Positions 1,900 to 32,457 of a stretch of DNA of 32,457 nucleotides are shown piece by piece. The DNA is from a virus: positions 1 to 32,457 of IMG/VR virus record IMGVR_UViG_3300045988_169227; one strand, given 5' to 3'. The position numbers and the translations under genes were made by a program. Under the pieces are notes generated by a model. It worked only from the letters and a program-made list of their open reading frames with translations. It was not told where the DNA came from and made no database searches. Each line of letters begins with the position of its first letter. The first letter of the stretch is position 1.

Positions 1900-2961
1900 T
1901 TAAATTATCCGTATACGCGATTTATAATACGCTCGCCCGTTTGCTTTTGAATACTCTATATATTCGTTCGTGAGCCGTTTATACGCCGTTACAGCCGTTT
2001 TATAGCCTTGTTCGTCGTTGCCCCGTTTCTCTATCGCTTCAACCTTATAACGCCGTATATCGCGCTCATACTCGCGCTGACGTTCGGTTATGGCGTACTC
2101 TTTCTTTTCTTCCGCTTCGGTTTGCTTTCCAAACCGTAACCCGTCTTCGTATTCAACGAGATAATGACGGCAGTTAAAACCGAGTAAGCCGTTTTTATAG
2201 GTCTTCCCGCTCTTCGTAGTATAGTATATATCGGTGGCGTTTTCAAGCGGCTGATAACTTCGTCCGTCGCTCGTTGTTCCGCTCGTGCCGTCAAGGCTGT
2301 ACACCTTACCCTGCCACGGTCGGCAACGCTCCGAGCAATCGGTATGCGTCGAGCATATAACGAGCCTTGCCCCGCTTCCTTTTAAGTCGGCAATATCCGT
2401 TAAATGCTTTTCATAGCGCACTTGCATTTCGGCTTTATTCCGTAACGAGTTACGCCCCGATATGTCGTCGGGGTCTCGCGCCGTCTGATTGATAAGGTTA
2501 TCCACCGCCGCCCGAACTTTCTTTTTCACGTCTTCGGTAAACTCTTTAAGCGGTACGCCGTAAACGTTCGCTTTCGGCATATCTACGTAATCGCCGCTTA
2601 TCGTTATGCCCTCGCGTTTAAGGCTTTGTATAGGCGTTTTTCGCCGCGTTTCTTTTGCGTTAAGCAATTCGACGAGCGACGGCAAAATAGCGAAATAAAA
2701 CGGCAATACGCGCCGCAGTTCGTTATATTGAGCGTTATAGAACGACACGAGCGAAACTGCCGCGTTCTTTTTGAGCGTATCGCTTGTCAATTCCTTTACT
2801 GCCCGGGCGATTATCCGTTTAACCTTTTCATCGATTAAGAATTTCGGTGTCTTTCGCAAATACTCGTTCTTGACCGTCAGCCGTATTTCCGTCTCCGCGT
2901 CCGTTATCGTCTGCGCTTGCAGATTCAAGGCGCGGCGCATTATCTTCGGCTTTTTCGTCAT
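1900..2961 (-). CDS. minor head / head-morphogenesis protein, phage Mu F / SPP1 gp7-like
   Basis: Positioned right after the portal gene. The motifs CSERCRPWQGKVYS and GFNCRHYL are typical of the Mu F family. A GGAGGG SD lies 7 nt before the ATG. Confidence 0.75.
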   Translation of the reverse strand: MTKKPKIMRRALNLQAQTITDAETEIRLTVKNEYLRKTPKFLIDEKVKRIIARAVKELTSDTLKKNAAVSLVSFYNAQYNELRRVLPFYFAILPSLVELLNAKETRRKTPIQSLKREGITISGDYVDMPKANVYGVPLKEFTEDVKKKVRAAVDNLINQTARDPDDISGRNSLRNKAEMQVRYEKHLTDIADLKGSGARLVICSTHTDCSERCRPWQGKVYSLDGTSGTTSDGRSYQPLENATDIYYTTKSGKTYKNGLLGFNCRHYLVEYEDGLRFGKQTEAEEKKEYAITERQREYERDIRRYKVEAIEKRGNDEQGYKTAVTAYKRLTNEYIEYSKANGRAYYKSRIRII

Positions 2962-4561
2962 AGTCTAACCCTCCGAAATAATCTTTTTCGTTCCACGGCA
3001 TATTGTTACTCTCGCTCTCTTCCTTGCAACGTTTATATTCTTCTTCGACCTGTTCGGGGTCGTCGTCGATATTAAACATTTGTACGGCTTTCCACTTCGA
3101 GCAATACCCGTCGCGGATAGCGTTTCCGAGTATCTCCGTGAGCGTTAAGCGGTTCGTAAGACCTGCAGACGACCAACGAAGCACGACCGTATCTTCATAG
3201 CCGTAAAAGGTCGTTACGGTTTTTAAGAGCCTGTTTATCGGTCTTTCTATAATCGCCCTTTCGCTGTTGACGTACTCTGCCGTTTCGTTTTCTTCCGTCG
3301 ATACTTCTCTTGCCGTTCTTGCCGTGTTATCCGCAAGGAACGAAGCAATCGTAGACGGGTTCAAACCCGAGTTTATCGCTATATCCTGTATCAACCTATC
3401 GCGGATAGCCGTCCAATCGCCGGAGCGAAGTTCAAACTGTATCGGCACAGGTTTCTGATTTTCAGGGTTCTGCGAGTTGTATTGATTGTAAATAAAGTCG
3501 TCAAGCCCGCTGTTATAGTTTCCGCCCGTTGCGCTGTTCATATATTTTGACAGAAGCACTCTGCCCCTGCCGAGGTACATATCCGTGTTTGCGCAAGCGT
3601 GATAAAAGTCCCACTCCATAAGATAGGAGATTAAAGGCGCAAGGAAACTCTCGCCGAGTGGCACTTCGGGTAAACCGCTTATGCCTTCCGACCATTTTAC
3701 GATTTCGCAACCGAGGTTTGTGAACGGTAACAATGTCGGCGAATCAAATCTCACGGTCGGATACGCTTTACTTATCGTGCGTTTAACAGCCGTAGGCAAT
3801 TGCTTAAACGGCAATCTTCCCGACGGCGATTGCGTAACGTAATTGCCGTTCGTAATGCTTCCGCGCTGTTTATGTATGACGAACTCGCTCACGGGCGCAT
3901 TATGTATTGTCTTGCCGTCAAAGCCCGTATAATCGGTGTAGTGCCTGTACTCGACGAGATAATAACTGTCGTACGCTTTCCCTTCTTCGTTGGTAACGCC
4001 AAAATCGGAGAAACAATGCAGGAAGCACTTTACTTCGATCACTTCGTCGTTGTTGCCTATAACGGGAATAAAACTATCGAGCCGTAGGGCTTCTGCCCAT
4101 AATTGCCCGTTAGACTTATTCAACTTCAAAAGCGACGTTCCCGCCTGCGCGGCGTAATTTATCGCTTTCGTTGCTACCGTTTCAAAGTTCGAACTTACGC
4201 CCCAATCTGACGAGATAAACTTTAACGCCTTGTTGAGTTTATCGTTCGTTTTATCTTTGCCCGCGTTCTTAAACATAAGGCGACCGCCGATGACTTTGCG
4301 TGCAATCTTATTGACGAGTGCCGCACCTATTCGCGTTGACGGTATGCCTTGCTCGGCGTTATGGAAGTAAGGAACGTAGCCGTCATACCACCATAACCAA
4401 TTTTTGACGAAGCGGTTCATAAAGTCGTAATACTCGGGTGAAATCATCGAGTAAAAAGTTGCGCGACCTATAAACGAGTACGTCCAATAATTATTGAAAG
4501 CCGCCTGCCGCAACCACGGTGCAACTTCCTTACTTACGTTTATGTTTTGTTCTTCGCTCAT
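2828..4561 (-). CDS. portal protein (577 aa)
   Basis: Assigned by size and by position immediately downstream of terL. An AAGGAG SD lies 8 nt before the ATG. It has an acidic C-terminal tail. Confidence 0.7.
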   Translation of the reverse strand: MSEEQNINVSKEVAPWLRQAAFNNYWTYSFIGRATFYSMISPEYYDFMNRFVKNWLWWYDGYVPYFHNAEQGIPSTRIGAALVNKIARKVIGGRLMFKNAGKDKTNDKLNKALKFISSDWGVSSNFETVATKAINYAAQAGTSLLKLNKSNGQLWAEALRLDSFIPVIGNNDEVIEVKCFLHCFSDFGVTNEEGKAYDSYYLVEYRHYTDYTGFDGKTIHNAPVSEFVIHKQRGSITNGNYVTQSPSGRLPFKQLPTAVKRTISKAYPTVRFDSPTLLPFTNLGCEIVKWSEGISGLPEVPLGESFLAPLISYLMEWDFYHACANTDMYLGRGRVLLSKYMNSATGGNYNSGLDDFIYNQYNSQNPENQKPVPIQFELRSGDWTAIRDRLIQDIAINSGLNPSTIASFLADNTARTAREVSTEENETAEYVNSERAIIERPINRLLKTVTTFYGYEDTVVLRWSSAGLTNRLTLTEILGNAIRDGYCSKWKAVQMFNIDDDPEQVEEEYKRCKEESESNNMPWNEKDYFGGLDYDEKAEDNAPRLESASADDNGRGDGNTADGQERVFAKDTEILNR

Positions 4562-4564
4562 ATT

Positions 4565-5905
4565 TTAATCTCCTTGATAATAAGCGCTCATAGTCGGTGT
4601 CTCCCACAAATTGAACGGGTTGTTATAATAAGTGTTTAACGCGTATCGGAACGCGTCTGCGCAGTCGTTCGGCACGGAATCGTCATACTTTTTGTTGTCT
4701 TCGTCCCATATCATACTCTCAAGGTCAATAACGAGTTGGTCGTCACCCGGCACGAACTCGTTTTTGATATAGTTGAAATACCCGCCGAAGTCTAATAAAC
4801 AAACGGCTTTTCTGCCTAACGCGTTATTAACAACGTCGGTCGTTTGGAGTATGTCTTTTTTCGTGAATTTCTGCACATTATATTCGGACGGCAACCTATA
4901 TGCCAAAGTCAAAACTAAGTCCGCCGCCGCGCAATCTATCGGCATAACGAACTCTACGCCGTTTTCTCTGAATTTATATTTATCTTGTAAATCTTGCAGA
5001 TAACGCTGTATACACGGCACTAACTGCTCGTTAGACAACTGCCCGTTTATTTTCGGGTTGTGGTAGAACATTTCGAGCCTTACCGCTTGCCCGTTATCCA
5101 TTATAGCGAGCGGAACTAACGCCGTACTGTCGTTCGTATTCGCGCCGTCGCCGCCGATTATAACGTAGCGTATTCTATGCCGCCCGTAACGCCGAGCAAA
5201 CTCCGCAGGTTGCAGGAAGTGCGTTTCGCGCCTGAATAACGGGTAAACCAAGCCTTCCGCTTTTACCCAATTACCGAGAATCCATTTATCAAAGTATATC
5301 GTGCCGCGATACTCGTTCTCGAGAGCCGTGATAAATGATTCCGGTAAAAAAGTATTGTCGTATATTGTAAAATGCTCGTTATACGTATGCACTTTATCGT
5401 TGTCGATATGCTTTTTAACGAAATGCGACGGGCTTTCGGGGTTGCACGTCGCGTCGCATTTACTGTCTTCACGGTCAAGTCGTGATTTCAGCATTTGAAA
5501 GAAATTCTCGGGATAGGTTGTCAATTCGTCGCAATACGCATAACCAAGCCCTAACCCCTGTATCTTTGTTATTGCCCGTTCGTCGTTTGCGCCGACGCAA
5601 TAGCAGGACTTGCCGAATATCTTAATCATTCGATTGCCTGCCATATCCGATTTAACTTCGCCGATATACTTCTCGCCGAAAATCTTTCTCATTTCGGCGA
5701 AAACGTTTCTTTCGAGCGTTGCCAAAGTCTTACCGCAAAAAAGGATATTATCGTCGTAATGCTCTTTAAGCCGTAACATAACGAGAAAATAACTGACGTG
5801 CGTTTTCCCGCTACGAGTTGCGCCTGATAGGATATTCCACCGCTTTGTGGCACAGCGAAGCACTTTCTTTTGTTTCTCGGTAAAACCCTTAAAATCTCTA
5901 TCCAT
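4565..5905 (-). CDS. terL: terminase large subunit (PBSX/Terminase_3-like)
   Basis: Walker A GATRSGKTH near the N-terminus and a Walker B-like GYAYCDE. It is 446 aa and is followed directly by the portal gene. Confidence 0.85.
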   Translation of the reverse strand: MDRDFKGFTEKQKKVLRCATKRWNILSGATRSGKTHVSYFLVMLRLKEHYDDNILFCGKTLATLERNVFAEMRKIFGEKYIGEVKSDMAGNRMIKIFGKSCYCVGANDERAITKIQGLGLGYAYCDELTTYPENFFQMLKSRLDREDSKCDATCNPESPSHFVKKHIDNDKVHTYNEHFTIYDNTFLPESFITALENEYRGTIYFDKWILGNWVKAEGLVYPLFRRETHFLQPAEFARRYGRHRIRYVIIGGDGANTNDSTALVPLAIMDNGQAVRLEMFYHNPKINGQLSNEQLVPCIQRYLQDLQDKYKFRENGVEFVMPIDCAAADLVLTLAYRLPSEYNVQKFTKKDILQTTDVVNNALGRKAVCLLDFGGYFNYIKNEFVPGDDQLVIDLESMIWDEDNKKYDDSVPNDCADAFRYALNTYYNNPFNLWETPTMSAYYQGD

Positions 5906-6290
5906 TGTCGCCGCCCCTTGCTATATCCGATATAGCCGCGCACAATTCGTCGAGTTTCTCCCGGTCGTTTCCGTCGTCCTGCGGTGCTTTACGCTCTAAC
6001 GAAGTCATCAAGAGTTGCGCCGCTTTCGTCCTTTCTTTACGTTCTTCCGCCCCGTCTCTCATCGTTTCGGATAAATACTCGTAGACCTCTTCTAATGTGG
6101 CTATACGGCTTGATTTCATCTTTTCCGTGAGTTCGGCAAGGTATTTCTGAATTTCAGGTTTCTTCAAGTTCTCCTGACCGATTGAATAAGCCGTCTTCTG
6201 ACTATACCCTGCTTTCTTCGCGCTCTCCGTTGCATTGAAACTCGCGGCGTAATACTCACAAAAGGCTTTCTGACGCTCGTTAAGTTTCAT
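5898..6290 (-). CDS. terS: terminase small subunit (Terminase_2-like)
   Basis: N-terminal LNERQKAFCEYY...AKKAGYSQKTAYSIG HTH, characteristic of small terminases. It overlaps the terL start by 8 nt. Confidence 0.8.
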   Translation of the reverse strand: MKLNERQKAFCEYYAASFNATESAKKAGYSQKTAYSIGQENLKKPEIQKYLAELTEKMKSSRIATLEEVYEYLSETMRDGAEERKERTKAAQLLMTSLERKAPQDDGNDREKLDELCAAISDIARGGDNG

Positions 6291-6328
6291 TTTTGCAAAA
6301 TCTCTCCTTTTCTTGTTATTTTACGCAT

Positions 6329-6354
6329 AAAAAAAGCACCGTTACGGCGGTGCT
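6329..6354 (-). terminator. rho-independent terminator ending the alarmone-hydrolase cassette
   Basis: Minus-strand RNA is AGCACCG-CCGUAA-CGGUGCU followed by U7. It lies 17 nt downstream of the stop at 6371. Confidence 0.8.
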
Positions 6355-6370
6355 TTCTATTGTTAAGTTG

Positions 6371-6808
6371 TTAGTTTTTCAAAAAGGCTATCTCTTTCGG
6401 ATATTCTTCAAGTATTCGCCTTTTCATTTTCTCCGTCGGGTTCTGAATACGGCTTAAATCGCTGTTATGTTCCAAGTCTGCAATCTTCACCACCCTTGCT
6501 ATCGGGTTATCCTTACACCGCTCTATATACTTCCAACGCGCCGCGCCGTTTGATTCGGCGGGTTTACGCCGCGTTACCGCGTCTACCGCTTCAACGATAT
6601 AATCGGGGAAACCTTCCTTTCTTAAATCGTCGAGCGTCATCGGCGTATCTTCTATTACGTCGTGGAGTAAGGCTACGACCTTTTCGTCGTTCGTATTGCA
6701 TTTTAACGCTACCGTTATCGGGTGGAAAACGTAATCGAGACCGTCTTTACCCACAACGCCTTTATGCGCCTTTATCGCTACTTCTAACGCTTTTCTGATT
6801 AAATCCAT
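6371..6808 (-). CDS. stand-alone RelA/SpoT-type HD hydrolase (small alarmone hydrolase, SAH)
   Basis: Carries HKGVVGKDGLDYVFHP, ALLHDVIEDT and KIADLEHN, which match the (p)ppGpp-hydrolase HD_4 signature. It is only 145 aa and has no synthetase domain. An AAGGAG SD lies 6 nt upstream. Confidence 0.8.
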   Translation of the reverse strand: MDLIRKALEVAIKAHKGVVGKDGLDYVFHPITVALKCNTNDEKVVALLHDVIEDTPMTLDDLRKEGFPDYIVEAVDAVTRRKPAESNGAARWKYIERCKDNPIARVVKIADLEHNSDLSRIQNPTEKMKRRILEEYPKEIAFLKN

Positions 6809-6817
6809 AGTATCTCC

Positions 6818-7147
6818 TTAGTCCGCAGCATACCACATACCGCTATCATATCCGCTTGCTCTTAAACTTTCGCTAAAAGCCTCCGCCATCCTCGAACGAC
6901 GGTTAGCCTGCCCGCTCGTATAACCTATATGCCACGGTCTAAAATATCTGCCCGTGAATTTATAACAATTTACGCCCGCAATATCGCAAGCCTTTTTTAC
7001 GTCAGCCTCGCGCCACCCCGCAAGCCTTACCGTTGCGCTATCAAAGTTGCAAGTTCCGCCGTCTTCACTATCGACATATCTCATTGCTTCTTTTTTTGCT
7101 TTCGCTAACGCTTTTGCCAATTCTTCAACTCTCGATAATTTTTTCAT
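6818..7147 (-). CDS. hypothetical protein (109 aa) co-transcribed with the SAH
   Basis: ATG at 7147 lies 8 nt after an AAGGAGGG SD; the track start at 7153 is a TTG. Its stop codon overlaps the SD of the SAH gene. Motifs DGGTCNFD and RPWHIGYTSGQANRRS have no function I can assign. Confidence 0.65.
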   Translation of the reverse strand: MKKLSRVEELAKALAKAKKEAMRYVDSEDGGTCNFDSATVRLAGWREADVKKACDIAGVNCYKFTGRYFRPWHIGYTSGQANRRSRMAEAFSESLRASGYDSGMWYAAD

Positions 7148-7177
7148 AATCAATGCCCTCCTTTCGATTACAGTTAC

Positions 7178-7206
7178 ATTATATGCTTATGTATACGAAT
7201 TGTCAA
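7178..7206 (-). promoter_or_regulatory. perfect-consensus sigma-70/A promoter, TTGACA-17-TATAAT
   Basis: The minus strand reads TTGACAattcgtatacataagcaTATAAT, with -35 at 7201-7206 and -10 at 7178-7183. It sits in the 100-nt gap upstream of the 109-aa gene. Confidence 0.7.
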
Positions 7207-7254: not shown

Positions 7255-7476
7255 TCAGTCCGTCGTTAAGTGCATTACGGCGTATTCGGGAAACTTCTTG
7301 AAACAATCAAGGTCATTTTCGTACGCGGAATATATCCCGCCATACTCTAATACGAAATCGATTTGATTTTCAGGGCAGCCCGCTTTTAGTAAGTTTTCTC
7401 TCGCGACCGCCGCAACTTCGTCATAGGGCTTACCGTAGTGTTCTTCAACAAATCTCTTATCTTCATCGGTTATCAT
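7255..7476 (-). CDS. hypothetical small acidic protein (73 aa)
   Basis: ATGA overlap with the stop of the upstream kinase gene. A GGGAGGT SD is present. The protein is D/E-rich. Confidence 0.6.
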   Translation of the reverse strand: MITDEDKRFVEEHYGKPYDEVAAVARENLLKAGCPENQIDFVLEYGGIYSAYENDLDCFKKFPEYAVMHLTTD

Positions 7477-8366
7477 TCAAAACTTACCTCCCTGTAATTT
7501 TCTTTTTTAAGTTGCTCGTAAACCTCTTTGGGCTTATCTCCGTAGTCTGCGATTCTTCCTAACGGGATATAACGCCCCGTATCTATCGCTCTTGCTACCG
7601 CCCTGTTCATACTCTCTTCGTTAGATACTTCAACGTGGTGTATATGAACGTCATAGCCCGCGTCCTGTAAATCTTTTACCCACTTTTCAATATCGACCAT
7701 TTTACTGCCGATTATCGGTATCGCAAGGTTAGCACCGTTAAACTCTCCCCCTGCCTTAAAAGCGTTAAGGGCGTTTTTCTGAATGGCTTTACTGTCGGAA
7801 TGAACGTAAGCCGCGCCGTATTCGTCATAACCGGGTAAAAGTTTCTTTATCTCGTCGTTATCAAACTCAAAAGCACCGTACTTCTTTTTTAACGAATTGA
7901 CTACCGCCGAAGATTTACCCGCGGCGGGTAAACCCATTACCAAGTCGGCACGAAAGCCTTTCGGCGTGTTGTTGGCGTCCTTTAAGAAAGTGTCGGTATA
8001 ATGGACTTTATCTTCATCACTCATCGGCGGACGCTGTTTAGCCATTTCCATTGCTAATTGCGCTTTTGCTTCAAAGTCTTTTATAACGGGGTTTTCGAGT
8101 AATTCCTCGTAAGTGTACCTTTTGCCGCTTTTAATCTCGTCATACAACTTTCTTGCCGCTCCGCCCTTTATGGCGAGTTCGTGTTCTGACTTCTTTATTG
8201 TATTTATTTTTTCGGAGTTTTGCAACTTTTTATATGTTTCGTTTTGCCTAAACTCGCTCTTATCTCCAAAAACGCGTTTAGTCGCTTCTGCGGGGCTTTC
8301 GCCCTCTTCCGCGTGAACGTGTCTACCGTTTTCGGTGGTAAACCAATAACCTTTTTCCGTTGCCAT
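7473..8366 (-). CDS. zeta-toxin-like P-loop kinase with an N-terminal extension (297 aa)
   Basis: Walker A MGLPAAGKSS, then FDNDEIKKLLPGY and GYDVHIHHVEVSNEESMNRAVARA, which parallel zeta/PezT family motifs. The N-terminus carries a GYWFTTENGRHVHAEEG motif. Confidence 0.65.
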   Translation of the reverse strand: MATEKGYWFTTENGRHVHAEEGESPAEATKRVFGDKSEFRQNETYKKLQNSEKINTIKKSEHELAIKGGAARKLYDEIKSGKRYTYEELLENPVIKDFEAKAQLAMEMAKQRPPMSDEDKVHYTDTFLKDANNTPKGFRADLVMGLPAAGKSSAVVNSLKKKYGAFEFDNDEIKKLLPGYDEYGAAYVHSDSKAIQKNALNAFKAGGEFNGANLAIPIIGSKMVDIEKWVKDLQDAGYDVHIHHVEVSNEESMNRAVARAIDTGRYIPLGRIADYGDKPKEVYEQLKKENYREVSFE

Positions 8367-9724
8367 TATTGCGTCTCCTTACTTTTTGCGAGGCGTTCCA
8401 TAATCTGTCGTGCGGCATAACGTCCGTTATTATTTAACTGTCTTTGCCACGCATTTTGAGACGGAGACCAACGGAAACCGTGAGATTTTAACATATCTCT
8501 TGTCTCTACGTCGGGCTTGCCGGGGAAACGAAGTTGTACTCTCATTTGCTCCGCGTTCTCTTCTACGTCTACGCCGTCAACTTTCGGGTATCTTGCCGCG
8601 GTTGCTGCTTTTGCCGCTTCCGGGTTTGCTTTTGCTTCCTGTGCCGCCGCCTGTGCTTTATTTAACTCGTCTATCCTACCTTGAATACGTCTTAACTCTG
8701 CATTGCCGTTTGCAAGCGAAAAAGACGGGTACGGCTGACGAGAAAAGTAATCGCCCGAATTATAAGCGGTATCAAATTTTTTAGCCGCTTCATCGCTTAC
8801 GCCCGGAAAGCCGACAAGCGTTTTGTTTTTCCTAAAATATGCGTTCATCGCCTTGCCGTTTTCCAACTCGGCTTTCAAATTGTCGTACTTCATTTGCAAC
8901 TTACCGATCGCGTTACTGTCGTTTGATTTAACGCTCGCGTTGCTTAATATCCCTTTTATCTTATCAAGATATACGTTATTATCGGGATCAAGCCTGTTTG
9001 AGTTTGCCTCATAAAGAGAACGCAAACGGCTGTTTTTTGCGTCGCTTTTTCGGGTTTTATAGTTTGCAGGCCCGGCAATTACCCACGACGGATAACTCGC
9101 TTCTACCCTGTTATACTCGTTCGTAAAGTTTGCGAGATTTTCAGAATACTTCTCGGCTATCCTTTGTACTCTATCCCAATCTTCTTCAGTAAGAGATGTG
9201 TTGTTTTTATATCTGCTCATCAACTCGTTTACGTTTTTTTCAAACTTCCCAATATCAGAGTTATAACTTGCCGTAGCACTTCCCTTTTGATAATCAGAAA
9301 AAGAATAGGCTTTTTTTGCCCTTTCCGCATAATCTTCGCTCACGCCGTGATTTTTAACGATAAACTTTCTTTCGTCCGACGGCGCGGCTGTTTCTTGTCT
9401 ATCTTCCTGTTTAACAGAAACTTCTTTTTCTCTTTCAGGCACGAGACTTTCTTTCGGCTTTTCGCTCGTCGTCATAACCGCTTTAAGGTCTTTGCCGTTT
9501 TCTAACGCAGAATAAACCTTATCGGGAGTAAGCCCCGTATGTTCTTTTAATGCACTCCAAGCGTCGCGGGGAGTTGCCCCGCTCGGCAAACTTATTCCGT
9601 ATTTTGCACATAACCCGAACGGTAAACCTAAATTACCGCCTTTCCCGCTCTTACTTTCCGCTTGTTCCCCGGTATCTTCACTCCCCGTTTTATACGGTTC
9701 TAACGAATTTTGCCTGTATTCCAT
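8366..9724 (-). CDS. multi-module hypothetical protein (452 aa), polyvalent-protein-like
   Basis: Good SD (AAAGGAG). Modules in order: an LPFGLCAKYGISLPSGATPRDAW motif, a long helical centre, and a C-terminal RFPGKPDVETRDMLKSHGFRWSPSQNAWQRQL mini-domain. That mini-domain is reminiscent of DUF3560-type plasmid and phage proteins. TAATG overlap with the next gene. Confidence 0.6.
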   Translation of the reverse strand: MEYRQNSLEPYKTGSEDTGEQAESKSGKGGNLGLPFGLCAKYGISLPSGATPRDAWSALKEHTGLTPDKVYSALENGKDLKAVMTTSEKPKESLVPEREKEVSVKQEDRQETAAPSDERKFIVKNHGVSEDYAERAKKAYSFSDYQKGSATASYNSDIGKFEKNVNELMSRYKNNTSLTEEDWDRVQRIAEKYSENLANFTNEYNRVEASYPSWVIAGPANYKTRKSDAKNSRLRSLYEANSNRLDPDNNVYLDKIKGILSNASVKSNDSNAIGKLQMKYDNLKAELENGKAMNAYFRKNKTLVGFPGVSDEAAKKFDTAYNSGDYFSRQPYPSFSLANGNAELRRIQGRIDELNKAQAAAQEAKANPEAAKAATAARYPKVDGVDVEENAEQMRVQLRFPGKPDVETRDMLKSHGFRWSPSQNAWQRQLNNNGRYAARQIMERLAKSKETQ

Positions 9725-10311: not shown

Positions 10312-11349
10312 TTAGTATTTTATGAAGCCGTCGCCATAGATTTTATTCAACTCGTCTATAACGTGCTTCATCCCTAAACCGTCTTTGGTCGGCTTCCAAA
10401 AGCCGTCCGTATCATACGCCCCGCCGCCCATACAATACTCGTATTGACGCGGATGAATTTTTTTGAGTAATAAAAACCTTTCGTCGCCTTTACAATGCGC
10501 GGAATACATACAGAAGATACAACCTGTCCGTTTCGCGCCTGTCGTGCATAACTTGCCGCAATCGCAAAGCGTTGTGCCGTATTGATACCCGCCGTCGTCT
10601 TTCACTACGACTTCACCATACACTTTTGAAATCGGTAGATTGTTTTGCTTTATGTATTGCAGAACGTCTTGCTCCGTCCAAAAACTCATAGGGTTACTTA
10701 TCGGCGATTTCATATCGAAACCATTACATCCATTGCGAAGCCATTGCTGCTCGCGCAGTTGGCTTTCTTCCGCCATTTGTGCCGTCATAGGCATTTTGCC
10801 CGTGATTTTGCTGTATTCGTGGGCGGGTTTCTTTTTCATAACGTTACAACACATGTGCGAAATCTTAAAGTCCGTAAAAAGTAACGGCGCGTACTTCGTT
10901 TTATTGTATTTGCTTTCGTTGCCGTTCTTGTCCTTTGCTGTGCCGAATAGTTTTTGTAATCGATACCCGTATCGATTACCCGTCAACGCCATTCGCCCTT
11001 GATATACGCACTCGCTGACTTCTTTACCTATTACGGGATAGCCGTAAGTCTTTATAACTTCGTCAAAGCGCATTGCGGGGCGTAAAATTTCAACATTGTC
11101 GAAACTTTTAACGAATTGTTGATTTTCGGGATATTCAAGCCCGGTGTTGATAAAAACGGCTTTTATCGTTGGATATAGTTTCCTCGCCATATCCAACAGA
11201 ACCGTACTATCCTTACCGCCCGAAAACGAAACGTAAACGCCGTCTACGCCGTAGTATTGCACCCATTCGCGTATACGCTGTTGAGTGCGCATAATCTTTA
11301 ATTCAAGCGGTAAAGACTGTAATTGAGTTAGTTCATTTCTCGTCGGCAT
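10312..11349 (-). CDS. PAPS-reductase-like PP-loop ATP pyrophosphatase (DndC/IbrA-like), 345 aa
   Basis: SFSGGKDSTVLLDM PP-loop motif and a Cys-rich C-terminal part (CDCGKLCTTGAKRTGCIFC). The ATG at 11349 has an AAGGAGAG SD; the track start at 11379 is a TTG. Confidence 0.75.
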   Translation of the reverse strand: MPTRNELTQLQSLPLELKIMRTQQRIREWVQYYGVDGVYVSFSGGKDSTVLLDMARKLYPTIKAVFINTGLEYPENQQFVKSFDNVEILRPAMRFDEVIKTYGYPVIGKEVSECVYQGRMALTGNRYGYRLQKLFGTAKDKNGNESKYNKTKYAPLLFTDFKISHMCCNVMKKKPAHEYSKITGKMPMTAQMAEESQLREQQWLRNGCNGFDMKSPISNPMSFWTEQDVLQYIKQNNLPISKVYGEVVVKDDGGYQYGTTLCDCGKLCTTGAKRTGCIFCMYSAHCKGDERFLLLKKIHPRQYEYCMGGGAYDTDGFWKPTKDGLGMKHVIDELNKIYGDGFIKY

Positions 11350-11409
11350 TTTTACTCTCCTTAAAATCTTCGTCAACAACCAAAAGCCCGTCCGAAAATA
11401 TCTTAAAAA

Positions 11410-11847
11410 TCATTTCTCTAATTCCTTCAATTTTTTTCGCGCTTCGTCTTCGGAAAGAAAAACTCTCTCACCAATTTTATTATTCTCAAAAGAAAAGCCA
11501 TATATTGCGTCGTCTCCCCTTTTAACGTAAAACTCTTCGGGACAACGAGCCATAAAACAAGCGTACTGTGAGACGCTGTTATTACTTGCGTCAGTTTCCC
11601 ATTTATAGCCAATAGCCGACACCTTTCCATAAATAAGCCGTCCGTCGGGGTTTGCCAGCCATACCGTGTCTCCAATTTTGCACGGAAGGTCTATAAGCGT
11701 TCCGTTCTCGATTTTGTCTTCCAATTCAGCAAGGCGTTCTAAAATTTCTTCATCAGGTGCATTTTTCAAAGTTAATCGAGTTCCTTTTTTAAGGAAATCG
11801 CCTTTTTCTTCAACATAGCGTTCTGTCAATCTTTTATAGTCTTTCAT
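11410..11847 (-). CDS. hypothetical protein (145 aa)
   Basis: ATGA overlap with the upstream gene. The RLAELEDKIENGTL...PCKIGDTVW pattern is common in Bacillota phage proteins of unknown function. Confidence 0.6.
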   Translation of the reverse strand: MKDYKRLTERYVEEKGDFLKKGTRLTLKNAPDEEILERLAELEDKIENGTLIDLPCKIGDTVWLANPDGRLIYGKVSAIGYKWETDASNNSVSQYACFMARCPEEFYVKRGDDAIYGFSFENNKIGERVFLSEDEARKKLKELEK

Positions 11848-12035
11848 CTTACTATCTCTATTTTTTTAACGTGTGTTTTACGAAAAGAATAATTTGCAAC
11901 TTCGTAACGGTCGGGCTTCCACTCCGCGCGGGTTAATACGCCCGTTATTGTTGTATCGTCAAAAAGTGTAACTTTTACTTTCTTGCCCAAAATGGCATTT
12001 AACTCTTCGCTTTCGTGTGTGTAGTGCTTTTTCAT
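11844..12035 (-). CDS. hypothetical protein (63 aa)
   Basis: AAGGAG SD 5 nt upstream of the ATG, with tight packing against its neighbours. Confidence 0.55.
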   Translation of the reverse strand: MKKHYTHESEELNAILGKKVKVTLFDDTTITGVLTRAEWKPDRYEVANYSFRKTHVKKIEIVR

Positions 12036-12038
12036 TTT

Positions 12039-12470
12039 TTACTCCTTAATTAGTGATTTTAGTTTTTCGGTTTTCGGGTCAAGTGTATTATCGCAAATAA
12101 TATTATTCGCAAGGATTCCGCTTGCAAGCAATATCGTCAATTCGTTTGCGTTTGGGAACTGCTTTATAAATTGTTCTAACAATCGCACTCGCGTTTCGTG
12201 GCAATTATCCGCTTGAATATCTACTCCGACAATACTTGATAAAGCCTTTAAGCCGTCTTTTTCATTTTCACAACGTGAGTATTTGCGAGCGAGTATTTCG
12301 ACCAAAAAGTTACCGTTCCCGCAAGCGGGTTCAAAAAAAGTGCTTTCGATATTATCCCATATTTCGACAGGAATAAGGTCGCACATATCTTTAACAATAA
12401 ATTCGGGTGTATATACTTCCGCAAAATCTTTAACTCTTTGCTTGCTCTTTATGATTTTCGACTTGCCCAT
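12039..12470 (-). CDS. N6-adenine DNA-methyltransferase-like N-terminal half (143 aa) without a catalytic (D/N)PP(Y/F) motif
   Basis: AEVYTPEFIV (motif X-like), FEPACGNGNFL (AdoMet motif I) and IVGVDIQ are present. No NPPY/DPPY follows in this ORF or in downstream ORFs. There is no SD within 15 nt of the ATG, so it may be a gene remnant. Confidence 0.5.
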   Translation of the reverse strand: MGKSKIIKSKQRVKDFAEVYTPEFIVKDMCDLIPVEIWDNIESTFFEPACGNGNFLVEILARKYSRCENEKDGLKALSSIVGVDIQADNCHETRVRLLEQFIKQFPNANELTILLASGILANNIICDNTLDPKTEKLKSLIKE

Positions 12471-15129: not shown

Positions 15130-15330
15130 TTATTTTTTTGCTTTTCTTTCGCTGTACGCCTGTTTTAACCGTTCGCAAGGCTCTCCGCTACATTTTGGCT
15201 CGGAGCAGTTACAGCACAGTTCGATTTCGCACTCGTACTTTATGTTCAGGTTTGGCTTGCTGTGCAACTTTGTCGAATAAGGTCTAACGCCTATAATCGG
15301 TTCAGTTCTGATTAGTCTTTGTCTTATCAT
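15130..15330 (-). CDS. small Cys-rich protein (66 aa)
   Basis: ATG at 15330 follows a GGGGGAG SD. It contains a YECEIELCCNCSEPKCSGEPC cluster. It overlaps the sigma-like gene's end by 29 nt. Confidence 0.45.
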   Translation of the reverse strand: MIRQRLIRTEPIIGVRPYSTKLHSKPNLNIKYECEIELCCNCSEPKCSGEPCERLKQAYSERKAKK

Positions 15331-15757
15331 CTTCTCCCCCTTGCGCCGCGCTGATTTTTGTAAGCGCTTCGGCATAAAGCGAAGCCACCTTTCGTTCGCT
15401 ATAATTAACTTTTTCGGGAACTTCTTTCCACGGAGTGCCTATCAAATGCCGATGAATAATGACGAGTTGCTCGTCTTCGGTTAAGAGTTTCAACCCGTCG
15501 GCGATTTCGTTTCCGATTTCGAAAAACTCCGTAAGCGTTTCGTCTCTCAATGATTCGAACTTTTCTATTTGATTCAGAACACGCTCTTCTATCGATATTT
15601 TTACTCCGCCGTCCGCCCGGACGGCTTCGTAATCAATTGCGGTCATTCCGCCCGATTTTTTCGTTTCATTGATAAGTTCAACAAGTGATTTGTATATCTT
15701 TGCGAGTTTGTTGTACTTTTCATAACGCTGTTTTATCGCTATCTCGTTCTGTGTCAT
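15302..15757 (-). CDS. sigma-70 region-4-like / DUF1492-like transcriptional regulator, a candidate late activator
   Basis: The C-terminal LTEDEQLVIIHRHLIGTPWKEVPEKVNYSERKVASLYAEALTKI resembles the sigma r4 HTH of ArpU/RinA/DUF1492-type phage regulators. Confidence 0.55.
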   Translation of the reverse strand: MTQNEIAIKQRYEKYNKLAKIYKSLVELINETKKSGGMTAIDYEAVRADGGVKISIEERVLNQIEKFESLRDETLTEFFEIGNEIADGLKLLTEDEQLVIIHRHLIGTPWKEVPEKVNYSERKVASLYAEALTKISAAQGGEDDKTKTNQN

Positions 15758-20364: not shown

Positions 20365-20577
20365 TTATTTTTGCCTTTTTGCTTTACTTTTCAATATCGC
20401 GTCTATAACGTCGCGTTCGTTGCTGTTATATAACTCCGCGAGTATTAAAACGTTCGCGATACCAGGCGTTCTCGTTCCCTGCTCGTAGTGGTCGATAGTT
20501 CCCTTCGACACGCCGAGAGCGGCAGCGACGGTTTTAACTTTAAGCCCTGCGCGTTTCCTTAAATCTCTTAAGTCCAT
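20365..20577 (-). CDS. Cro/CI-type HTH regulator (70 aa), first gene of the early operon
   Basis: RKRAGLKVKTVAAALGVSKGTIDHYEQG is an HTH. The ATG at 20577 has an AAGGAGG SD. The track extension to 20658 would cover the promoter. Confidence 0.8.
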   Translation of the reverse strand: MDLRDLRKRAGLKVKTVAAALGVSKGTIDHYEQGTRTPGIANVLILAELYNSNERDVIDAILKSKAKRQK

Positions 20578-20607
20578 AAGTTTACCTCCTTGTTTGATTT
20601 CGTCCCT

Positions 20608-20636
20608 ATAATAGCATACCTTACGGGCATAGTCAA
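20608..20636 (-). promoter_or_regulatory. early promoter TTGACT-17-TATTAT with an A/T-rich UP-like region
   Basis: The minus strand reads TTGACTatgcccgtaaggtatgcTATTAT, with -35 at 20631-20636 and -10 at 20608-20613. A/T tracts at 20651-20678 lie upstream. Confidence 0.65.
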
Positions 20637-20679
20637 CCGTTTTGTATACATTTTTCAAAAAAAATTAAAAAATTTTTCT

Positions 20680-20846: not shown

Positions 20847-20880
20847 TAAAAAAAGACGCCCCTTTTGGGAGCGTCTTTTA
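20847..20880 (-). terminator. strong rho-independent terminator at the end of the late operon, with bidirectional shape
   Basis: AGACGCCCC-UUUU-GGGAGCGUCU stem of 9 bp with one bulge. It is flanked by an A7 run on the plus strand (a U-run on the minus RNA) and by TTTT on the other side. Confidence 0.8.
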
Positions 20881-32209: not shown

Positions 32210-32457
32210 TTAAAACGATTTGCTTACGACAGCAGAAGAAAGACCGCCTGCGACGATAGCAACCGCTTTAACGGTTTTGCCCGCAACGGTGGAAACTTTA
32301 CCGCCGCTCGCAATAGTCGACGATTTTTCCGTCGGGGTAGAACCGTCGGTCGTGTAGTAAATCTTCGCATTTGCGGTGGCGCACGTAATAGTTGCGTCCG
32401 CGCCCGAAGTGGCGATTACGGGGTGGGCCGTCTGAACTCTCGAAGCCGGGGCTTTAA
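32210..32457 (-). CDS. major capsid protein, C-terminal part with an Ig-like/Fn3-associated decoration domain (joins 1..1057; nt 32431-32457 duplicate nt 1-27)
   Basis: The frame is continuous with 1..1057 because the unique length of 32430 is divisible by 3. The stop TAA lies at 32210-32212. The tail reads ...ATITCATANAKIYYTTDGSTPTEKSSTIASGGKVSTVAGKTVKAVAIVAGGLSSAVVSKSF. Confidence 0.75.
   Translation of the reverse strand, partial: KAPASRVQTAHPVIATSGADATITCATANAKIYYTTDGSTPTEKSSTIASGGKVSTVAGKTVKAVAIVAGGLSSAVVSKSF

Follow-up and report, generated by a model that had tools for sequence, protein, structure and literature searches.

Synthetases of the alarmone (p)ppApp are known as type VI secretion system effectors, exported enzymes, toxic small alarmone synthetase (toxSAS) toxins and MuF-fused phage toxins. 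Here we describe a two-gene cassette in a phage sequence of 32,457 nucleotides (IMG/VR record IMGVR_UViG_3300045988_169227, positions 1 to 32,457; this whole stretch is called the window), in which a gene for a 109-aa protein, p109, is followed by a gene for a 145-aa alarmone hydrolase. The closest described enzyme, Aph1 of Bacteroides caccae (PDB 7SMG), is a (p)ppApp hydrolase, and Aph1 provides the hydrolytic immunity in MuF-Apk2 toxin modules (PMC10083569, PMC12226406). It neutralises non-cognate as well as cognate (p)ppApp synthetases, and one Aph1 immunity can stand in for another (PMC10083569, PMC12226406). Small alarmone hydrolases (SAHs) of other subfamilies include ATfaRel, which serves the FaRel toxSAS operon as a type IV antitoxin of the SAH type, and the stand-alone enzymes of Salmonella phages PVP-SE1 (PbcSpo) and SSU5 (PaSpo), which neutralised every toxSAS toxin tested (PMC7229694). 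Earlier work has already described orphan Aph1 homologs and stand-alone phage SAHs and has suggested that they serve phages against alarmone-type abortive infection (PMC10083569; PMC7229694). Our result is, therefore, mainly a more precise annotation of an enzyme type that is already known; what appears somewhat unusual, as judged from the sequence, is the setting of the cassette, which is toxin-less, outside the head operon and behind the promoter of another gene.

The first-pass annotation, which was made without database searches, had recognised the second gene as that of a stand-alone RelA/SpoT homolog (RSH)-type hydrolase with intact catalytic residues. This was confirmed, and the assignment could be narrowed from a generic SAH to the Aph1 family. 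The best match in the PDB was 7SMG (E = 6e-33, 48% identity end to end), with residues 3-144 of the hydrolase aligned with residues 7-142 of the 149-residue chain and one 5-residue insertion. The matches to other PDB chains were those to Rel enzymes and SpoT domains (2e-13 or weaker), Lmo0812 (1.7e-7), MESH1 (1e-5 to 1e-6), the 196-aa SAH chain 7QOC (1.2e-5) and the PaSAH-like chain 6YVC (0.048). Among profiles, phrog_990 was matched at 9e-45 and TIGR00691, over the N-terminal hydrolase region, at 6e-14. We assign the protein to the Aph1 family because of the 7SMG, phrog_990 and TIGR00691 matches and not because of Pfam HD_4 (PF13328), which matched only the N-terminal half and scored 25.5 bits, just below the gathering cut-off of 27.2. 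The motifs of the HD_4 signature noted earlier (H29-P30, L48-H49-D50-V-I-E-D-T and K108-I-A-D111-L-E-H-N115) are present. The catalytic and metal residues H15, H29, H49-D50, D111 and N115 align with H19, H53-D54, D110 and N114 of Aph1, and the protein appears to be a compact domain of about 145 aa that lacks the C-terminal helices of dimeric SAHs.

With Aph1 of B. caccae and of Streptococcus, Mannheimia and Pasteurella prophages, the window hydrolase shares 45-48% identity over the full length of about 140-150 aa, the HD catalytic residues and a phage-encoded position as second member of a coupled pair behind a small open reading frame (ORF). Four of the six residues of the Aph1 specificity signature (D24, R96, D116, R119, K133 and Y134; PMC10083569) are also kept, as R97, D117, R120 and Y136; the other two are considered below, where our proposal is weighed. 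The Aph1 members characterised so far act on (p)ppApp but not on (p)ppGpp: all 13 family enzymes that were assayed hydrolysed ppApp efficiently and 11 had no activity on ppGpp, with modest ppGpp activity in two of the 12 homologs tested (PMC10083569). The window hydrolase is a predicted (p)ppApp 3'-pyrophosphohydrolase, for which (p)ppApp is the most likely substrate. The Aph1 literature cited here reports no Aph1-type activity on pyrophosphorylated tRNA.

Among cultured phages, the closest homologs of the hydrolase (45-48% identity) are found in Streptococcus prophages, where the gene order is terS, terL, portal, MuF-Apk2, an IapK gene of about 69 aa and Aph1; phiARI0462 and Javan119 carry the canonical form. 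In 52 viral-contig loci (of at least 9 kb) with the nearest hydrolase relatives, a sample biased by the peptide patterns used for fetching, the Apk2 toxin domain was adjacent in 45 and IapK was also present in 37. This arrangement, a hydrolase beside a MuF-fused Apk2 and an IapK/Tis1-like binder, was not found in the window. No integrase, recombinase, RelA_SpoT synthetase domain or IapK was detected among the window ORFs, of which most were searched against Pfam, some as concatenates, and part against PHROGs. Nor did the window give a tblastn match to two Streptococcus MuF-Apk2 proteins, two IapK proteins or the Apk-like protein of a related locus, L068 (L numbers denote loci collected for comparison). 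These Pfam and PHROGs searches, together with tblastn using MuF-Apk2 and the L068 protein, gave no sign of a hidden synthetase. The window does encode a MuF-like protein (353 aa, Phage_min_cap2), which ends with its Pfam domain and has no C-terminal toxin extension. With neither a synthetase nor IapK in the genome, the hydrolase appears to be an orphan copy of what is usually an immunity gene.

The comparison with the described systems can be stated accordingly. Aph1 lies downstream of MuF in the head operon and behind iapK, whereas the window gene lies upstream of terS in a unit with its own promoter and terminator, behind a small ORF of the p109 family that is unrelated to IapK. In addition, MuF toxins are described as specific to temperate phages, whereas no integrase was found in the window. 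PbcSpo and PaSpo are likewise toxin-less phage alarmone hydrolases for which a counter-defence role has been proposed, but they belong to other SAH subfamilies. ATfaRel acts by degrading the product and is hence promiscuous across toxins, a property that the window hydrolase would share; it is, however, encoded beside its toxin, and its subfamily is resembled by the L068 hydrolase and not by the window enzyme. The first-pass annotation had named toxic synthetases as the target, an idea that we retain; what it lacked was the MuF-Apk2 phage toxins as a source of (p)ppApp, whose immunity genes are the nearest relatives of the hydrolase. Five further viral loci (L114, L122, L130, L133 and L174) carry Aph1-type hydrolases about 50% identical to that of the window with no Apk2 toxin detected within 5 kb, and these may be additional orphan copies in different contexts.

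The hydrolase gene is part of a compact predicted transcription unit on the minus strand. A σA/σ70 consensus promoter (7178..7206) consists of TTGACA at 7206..7201, a 17-nt spacer and TATAAT at 7183..7178, with an AT-rich stretch upstream. A pattern search established that this is the sole 12/12 match in the 32,457-base window, as had been claimed from reading the letters; 0.02 matches were expected, and at least one was seen in two of 100 shuffles. The 5' leader (7148..7177) contains the Shine-Dalgarno sequence (SD) GGAGG at 7161..7157, 9 nt before the p109 start. The p109 gene (6818..7147) runs from the ATG at 7147 to the TAA at 6820..6818; the TTG at 7153 listed by the ORF finder is too near the SD, and public gene calls likewise give 109 aa. 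As read from the sequence, the stop codon lies within the SD (AAGGAG) of the next gene, in the string TAAGGAG (6814..6820), which indicates that p109 and the hydrolase are translationally coupled, as had been suggested. The hydrolase gene (6371..6808) starts with the ATG at 6808 and ends at 6371. It is followed by an intrinsic terminator (6329..6358) composed of an 11-pair stem with a loop of 6 nt and U7; the distance from there to the start of terS is 39 nt. The U7 reported earlier was correct and the reported stem, 7 bp of GC within 6329-6354, nearly so: the GC-rich core (GCACCG/CGGUGC) has six pairs and is lengthened to 11 by A-U pairs. The predicted free energy is −14.9 kcal/mol (z = −3.6), and none of 200 shuffles was equally stable. 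In L008 and L011, terminators of other sequence stand behind the hydrolase at the same position.

The leader can also fold into a hairpin with the SD in its loop and the AUG in its 3' arm, and this is the case in all five lineages compared (window 7138-7177; L008:5969-6010; L011:3064-3104; L068:3513-3556; L077:4967-5010). The arms differ among lineages (ATAACTGTAA/TTGCAGTTAT, ATAAGTGT/ACACTTAT and others), which suggests covariation. At −3.9 kcal/mol, the window hairpin is weak, whereas that of L011 is strong (−14.1 kcal/mol, z = −6.4).

Accessory phage genes bracketed by their own promoter and terminator are known as morons, the classical examples of which are expressed from prophages. At the level of sequence, the cassette has the anatomy of such a unit, that is, a promoter and a terminator around two non-essential genes at a module boundary, just upstream of terS, and its occurrence in phages with unrelated terminases; the autonomous unit proposed in the first-pass annotation is supported in this respect. 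It differs from morons in that no lysogeny genes were detected in its phage and in that its GC content (44.6%) is that of the genome (44.2%), by which a foreign composition of the cassette was ruled out.

The perfect promoter had been taken to be that of a hydrolase cassette. We examined about 170 p109 loci (60 viral or encoding contigs, 33 genomes and 80 metagenomes, with some overlap), and this claim was not borne out. TTGACA-17-TATAAT precedes the p109 homologs of L011, L068 and L077, and L008 has TTGACA-17-TACAAT in this place; in L077, the consensus promoter and p109 are present and the hydrolase is absent. Because the same consensus precedes p109 in a locus without the hydrolase, we assign the promoter to p109, with which it appears to travel. 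The stretch from the −35 element to the SD is nearly invariant among L008, L011 and L063. The promoter spacer in relatives contains a palindrome that overlaps the −10 element (ATATACTT-N4-AAGTATAT in L011, 3043-3062; 7-nt arms in L077, 4947-4966), and a basic ORF of 62-65 aa, 79-84% identical among L008, L011, L068 and L077, lies just upstream of the promoter. The palindrome and the basic ORF are a possible operator-repressor pair; the ORF resembles a ribbon-helix-helix protein by eye only, with no support from Pfam or PHROGs. In the window, the upstream basic ORF is absent and the spacer palindrome (7184-7200) is degenerate, so that the promoter there may be unregulated.

The first-pass annotation also treated p109 as the partner of the hydrolase. 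Our survey did not bear this out: the hydrolase adjoins p109 in only nine of the roughly 170 loci, and these fall into four lineages, namely the window type, L008, L011/L012 (also L190 and L192) and L068. Natural variants have lost either gene alone. In a close relative of the window phage (L063, IMGVR_UViG_3300045988_172306, 1124-1585), recombination between two copies of an 11-bp direct repeat, AAAAGCGTTAG, has removed 321 bp, and the first 14 codons of p109 are fused in frame to the hydrolase, behind a promoter with TATGAT as its −10 element. Both repeat copies are present in the window on the minus strand, one inside p109 (7105..7115) and one inside the hydrolase gene (6784..6794); 0.07 were expected. 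Conversely, a near-identical phage (L002, Logan SRR8316675, 2054-2489) has an intact p109 and a hydrolase frame broken near codon 101, which could be a real frameshift or an assembly error. Because of the rarity of the pairing, the L077 promoter without a hydrolase, L063 and L002, we regard the two genes as separable and the hydrolase as an apparently optional passenger. On present evidence, the tie of p109 to alarmones consists of adjacency in one phage group only.

The pair is nevertheless found beyond the closest relatives. In L008, p109 and the hydrolase are 85% and 80% identical to those of the window, whereas terL is only 24% identical, and backbones with terL identities of only 21-24% carry the pair. 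Its presence in such backbones argues that the p109-hydrolase block moves horizontally. The same observation can be read in favor of a true two-component system, in which p109, acting as an IapK-like blocker, a sponge or a specificity factor, would bind a toxin, a nucleotide or the pyrophosphorylated end of a tRNA, and the hydrolase would finish the task. The translational coupling is consistent with this scenario, as is the retention of the pair in three backbones with very different terminases. In L068, moreover, a hydrolase of another subfamily overlaps the p109 stop with a synthetase upstream, so that p109 takes a position like that of iapK in apk2-iapK-aph1, and the polar residues that do not vary in p109 (D, C, N, D, Q, N, R, R and E) look more like those of a ligand-binding or active site than of a scaffold. 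However, neither a hydrolase nor a synthetase lies near p109 in about 95% of its loci, the promoter and p109 occur without a hydrolase in L077, and L063 keeps the hydrolase with p109 deleted. In addition, p109 has no sequence or fold likeness to any PDB chain, and tblastn with IapK was negative in the window and in all p109 loci. Finally, p109 is constant whereas the toxin slot holds either a Zeta-like or an Apk-like gene, and each of these toxin-like genes is directly followed by a small acidic ORF of its own. We, therefore, think that a two-component system is unlikely, though it is the most probable of the alternatives.

The proposal that we favor, and that we consider reasonably probable, is that the early promoter of p109 also serves the hydrolase, which would be an orphan enzyme for immunity or counter-defence. 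The cassette would be an insulated accessory operon, driven by the host RNA polymerase, in a mosaic region between the replication genes and terS. The strong host-type promoter would drive p109, translational coupling would bring about expression of the hydrolase, and the terminator would insulate the packaging operon. Made from the start of infection, the hydrolase would cleave off the 3'-pyrophosphate of pppApp, ppApp and pApp at its HD metal centre, yielding ATP, ADP and AMP, and would detoxify (p)ppApp produced by Apk-type synthetases in the infected cell. The anatomy, the family, the absence of a synthetase, and the conservation and mobility of the unit are shown by the sequence comparisons, whereas the substrate, the timing and the biological target are, in this proposal, what we infer from sequence. 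The (p)ppApp might come from rival phages of the same group (compare L068), from MuF-Apk2 prophages or from toxSAS modules of the host. Because the enzyme would act on the product and not on the toxin, it would need no cognate partner and would provide broad, non-specific protection, in line with published data on cross-protection (PMC12226406, PMC10083569).

Several points weigh against this proposal. The early timing is read from the consensus match alone, and the proposal presumes that the host or the phages of the host produce (p)ppApp. Rescue of Apk toxicity by Aph1 was only partial in E. coli (PMC10083569, PMC12226406). The presence of two SAH families directly behind p109 in related phages could reflect a functional link and not promoter capture. 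Lastly, two of the six signature residues are changed relative to Aph1, D24 to G20 and K133 to E135. D24 is one of two residues shown to control specificity, and glutamate at the K133 position is the state that was introduced as the K133E mutant (PMC10083569). With these two positions changed, the substrate range of the hydrolase is uncertain. The L008 and L011 orthologues keep Asp at the D24 position, so that the window copy could be drifting. Another signature residue, R96, is missing from the Streptococcus prophage Aph1 homologs in the alignment.

The changed residues bear on two other explanations. One is that the hydrolase degrades (p)ppGpp of the host, thereby blocking the stringent response so that host synthesis continues in the infected cell. 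In favor of this, the protein has the fold and the catalytic residues of RSH hydrolases, D24 is lost, the glutamate at the K133 position is found in (p)ppGpp hydrolases, and two of the 12 Aph1 homologs tested had modest ppGpp activity (PMC10083569). On the other hand, the match to Aph1 (6e-33) contrasts with 2e-13 or weaker to any (p)ppGpp hydrolase, and R120, which corresponds to the proposed guanine excluder R119 of Aph1, is retained. Position 20 is Gly and not the guanine-stacking Arg of Rel enzymes (PMC10083569), and the assays of the family, in which ppApp was hydrolysed by 13 of 13 enzymes and ppGpp activity was missing from 11, point the same way. We regard degradation of host (p)ppGpp as distinctly improbable. 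The first-pass annotation had left open counter-defence or an override of the stringent response; a conflict over alarmone toxins agrees with our analysis, and the override is the weaker option given the Aph1 type.

The other explanation is that the hydrolase is decaying, being left over from a former toxin-immunity module and no longer functional. Neither the toxin nor IapK is found in the window, D24 is lost in the window copy only, and L002 has a frameshifted hydrolase. Yet the ORF is intact with all catalytic residues, and it is kept in four lineages at 74-95% identity; L063 has retained the hydrolase after an in-frame deletion of p109; the SD is strong; and the hydrolase terminator is conserved in position though not in sequence. 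In our judgement, there is hardly any chance that the gene is a mere remnant.

The position upstream of p109 is occupied by different genes in related phages. L068 is a 36-kb contig binned with a Christensenellaceae metagenome-assembled genome (JBGUUU010000140.1), with a terL 68% identical to that of the window. In the same slot (2328-5694), it has, in order, a synthetase, a 41-aa acidic ORF, a 65-aa basic ORF, the consensus promoter, p109 (46% identical to the window p109), a hydrolase, a homolog of the window protein p452 described below, and terS. The synthetase is a protein of 265-275 aa with an RSH synthetase as its C-terminal part, which shares 33-35% identity with Streptococcus Apk2tox (about 1e-20); it matches PDB 8VX3 at 2e-5 and, with its C-terminus, phrog_7625 at 6e-23, with a sub-threshold score of 22.5 bits to Pfam RelA_SpoT. 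Its N-terminal 35 residues or so resemble the N-terminus of the p452 homolog of the same locus, and it is stand-alone and not fused to MuF. No further relatives of it were found in viral contigs. The 190-aa hydrolase of L068, whose gene overlaps the stop codon of p109, is PbcSpo/ATfaRel-like, matching 7QOE at 4e-33 and Aph1 only at 3e-5. This gene order appears to be a new form of phage Apk toxin module. The slot thus contains a synthetase and a hydrolase in L068, the hydrolase alone in the window, L008 and L011, and neither in L077.

In the window, L008, L011 and L077, the synthetase slot is taken by a Zeta-toxin-like P-loop kinase with its own small downstream ORF. The window kinase (297 aa, 8366..7473, minus strand; Pfam Zeta_toxin, 47 bits) is overlapped by the gene of a small acidic protein, p73 (73 aa, 7476..7255, minus strand), and the two look like a toxin-antidote pair. 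Zeta-like domains also match PHROG profiles of giant 'minor head protein' type. The 3'-OH of NAD is a target of some Zeta-family kinases, and the SAH MESH1 can act as an NADPH phosphatase. One could, therefore, envision that the hydrolase is the antidote to the kinase of its own phage, removing a 3'-phosphoryl group from an adenosine nucleotide. The window, L008 and L011/L012 share a syntenic block of the kinase, the small ORFs, p109 and an Aph1-type hydrolase, and the kinase sits in the slot of the Apk-like synthetase of L068. Against this scenario, L077 has the Zeta-like kinase and p109 without the hydrolase, the overlapping p73 is a more obvious antidote, the kinase lies outside the promoter-terminator unit, and action of Aph1 on such monophosphates is not known. 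We consider this scenario very improbable, and the orphan immunity or counter-defence role remains our preferred interpretation.

The function of p109 could not be assigned in the first-pass annotation, and the database searches agree. Its only profile match was phrog_23592 (2.4e-12 over residues 6-109), the function of which is unassigned; Pfam and NCBIfam gave only noise, and no PDB sequence matched below E = 0.5. A profile search of 1.84 billion cluster representatives returned 1048 members at E<=1e-3, most of 105-120 aa, many of about 180 aa with an N-terminal extension, and a few longer proteins with the p109 domain at the C-terminus, one of them behind a DUF3560 domain (P0040). Genomic matches were mostly in gut Clostridia; plasmids gave no match and cultured phages three weak ones. 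The motifs DGGTCNFD and GQxNRRxRMAEA are invariant, with D29, G30, G31, C33, N34, D36, G79, Q80, M87, E89, A90 and L95 as the invariant residues. The AlphaFold2 (AF2) model (mean predicted local distance difference test score, pLDDT, 83.7) has an N-terminal helix followed by a beta-alpha-beta-beta-alpha-beta order. A Foldseek comparison of the model with the PDB found no significant match (best E = 0.3, TM score about 0.3), and in BFVD, only uncharacterised phage proteins were matched. IapK, Tis1 and other solved antitoxins were ruled out as identities of p109, given no PDB sequence or Foldseek match and negative tblastn with IapK.

A speculative view of p109, which we hold to be quite unlikely, is that it represents a new small ferredoxin-like family whose invariant pocket binds a phosphorylated nucleotide or an RNA end, and that it works with the alarmone hydrolases in these phages by sequestering or sensing 3'-pyrophosphorylated adenosine nucleotides or by conferring specificity for them. 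The pocket may be formed by the DGGTCNFD loop before strand 1 and the N-terminus (GQxNRR) of the last long helix. Such a role would explain why two unrelated SAH subfamilies stand behind p109 and why an Apk-like synthetase lies upstream of it in L068.

The commonest neighbour of p109 is not a hydrolase but a DUF3560-related protein like p452, which is encoded directly downstream in 19 of the first 60 loci. In the window, p452 is encoded on the minus strand at 8366..9724; it matches phrog_19458, which is labelled 'primase', and it is mostly helical, with an AF2 model of pLDDT 81. The model matched no PDB fold, and the sequence matched no PDB sequence. Its tie to DUF3560 is weak; shorter relatives are at or near the Pfam threshold, and we found no functional literature on DUF3560. 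Proteins of this kind were noted at L036, L042-L046, L049 and other loci. The protein P0040 fuses DUF3560 to the p109 domain, a link that depends on Pfam DUF3560 matches alone, given that BLASTP of p452 or of P0279 against P0040 was not significant.

The window ends share an exact 27-bp overlap (1-27 and 32431-32457), and the major capsid gene spans both ends; the window is, therefore, a complete circular phage assembly of about 32.43 kb. The capsid gene has an Ig-like C-terminal domain in its database copy, and identical copies of the phage are present in human-gut metagenomes. Every gene is on one strand. The replication and early genes encode a DnaD-like loader, a single-stranded DNA-binding protein, an exonuclease, an ArpU/RinA-like activator, helix-turn-helix (HTH) proteins, and proteins resembling 3'-phosphoadenosine-5'-phosphosulfate (PAPS) reductase and a methylase. 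They are followed by p452, the Zeta-toxin-like kinase, the 73-aa ORF, the cassette, terS, terL, portal, the MuF-like protein, and the capsid and tail genes. The packaging module opens with terS (5898..6290, minus strand), which matches Pfam Terminase_2 at 88.6 bits, and a 66-nt stretch of terS was the sole match in a nucleotide comparison of the region with cultured phages.

Some further features of the genome may be mentioned. In the gap of about 40 nt between the terminator and terS (6291-6332, minus strand), a TAAAAT lies about 22 nt before the terS ATG with no recognisable −35 element, and the ArpU/RinA-like activator is encoded at 15757..15302 (phrog_248); a late promoter may overlap the terminator tail and depend on this activator. 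The PAPS-reductase-domain protein (355 aa) is encoded near a short N6-methylase-like ORF (143 aa) within 10312-12470 on the minus strand, and the two could provide a DNA-modification or anti-restriction function in the early region. The strongest terminator-like hairpin of the window (20851-20879, minus strand; 12 pairs, six of them GC, with a T-run) is found between the last late genes and the beginning of the early region and adjoins an HTH (Cro/CI-like) gene at 20658..20365.

We see the main value of this analysis in the comparative series around L068 and in the flagging of the p109 family. p109 is a very common uncharacterised small phage protein with the strongest predicted promoter of its genome, which makes it a target for functional work. 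The series of slot contents fits the dynamics expected of toxins and orphan immunities between competing phages. These related gut phages would offer a compact natural system in which to test whether phage (p)ppApp toxins act in conflict between phages or between phage and host.

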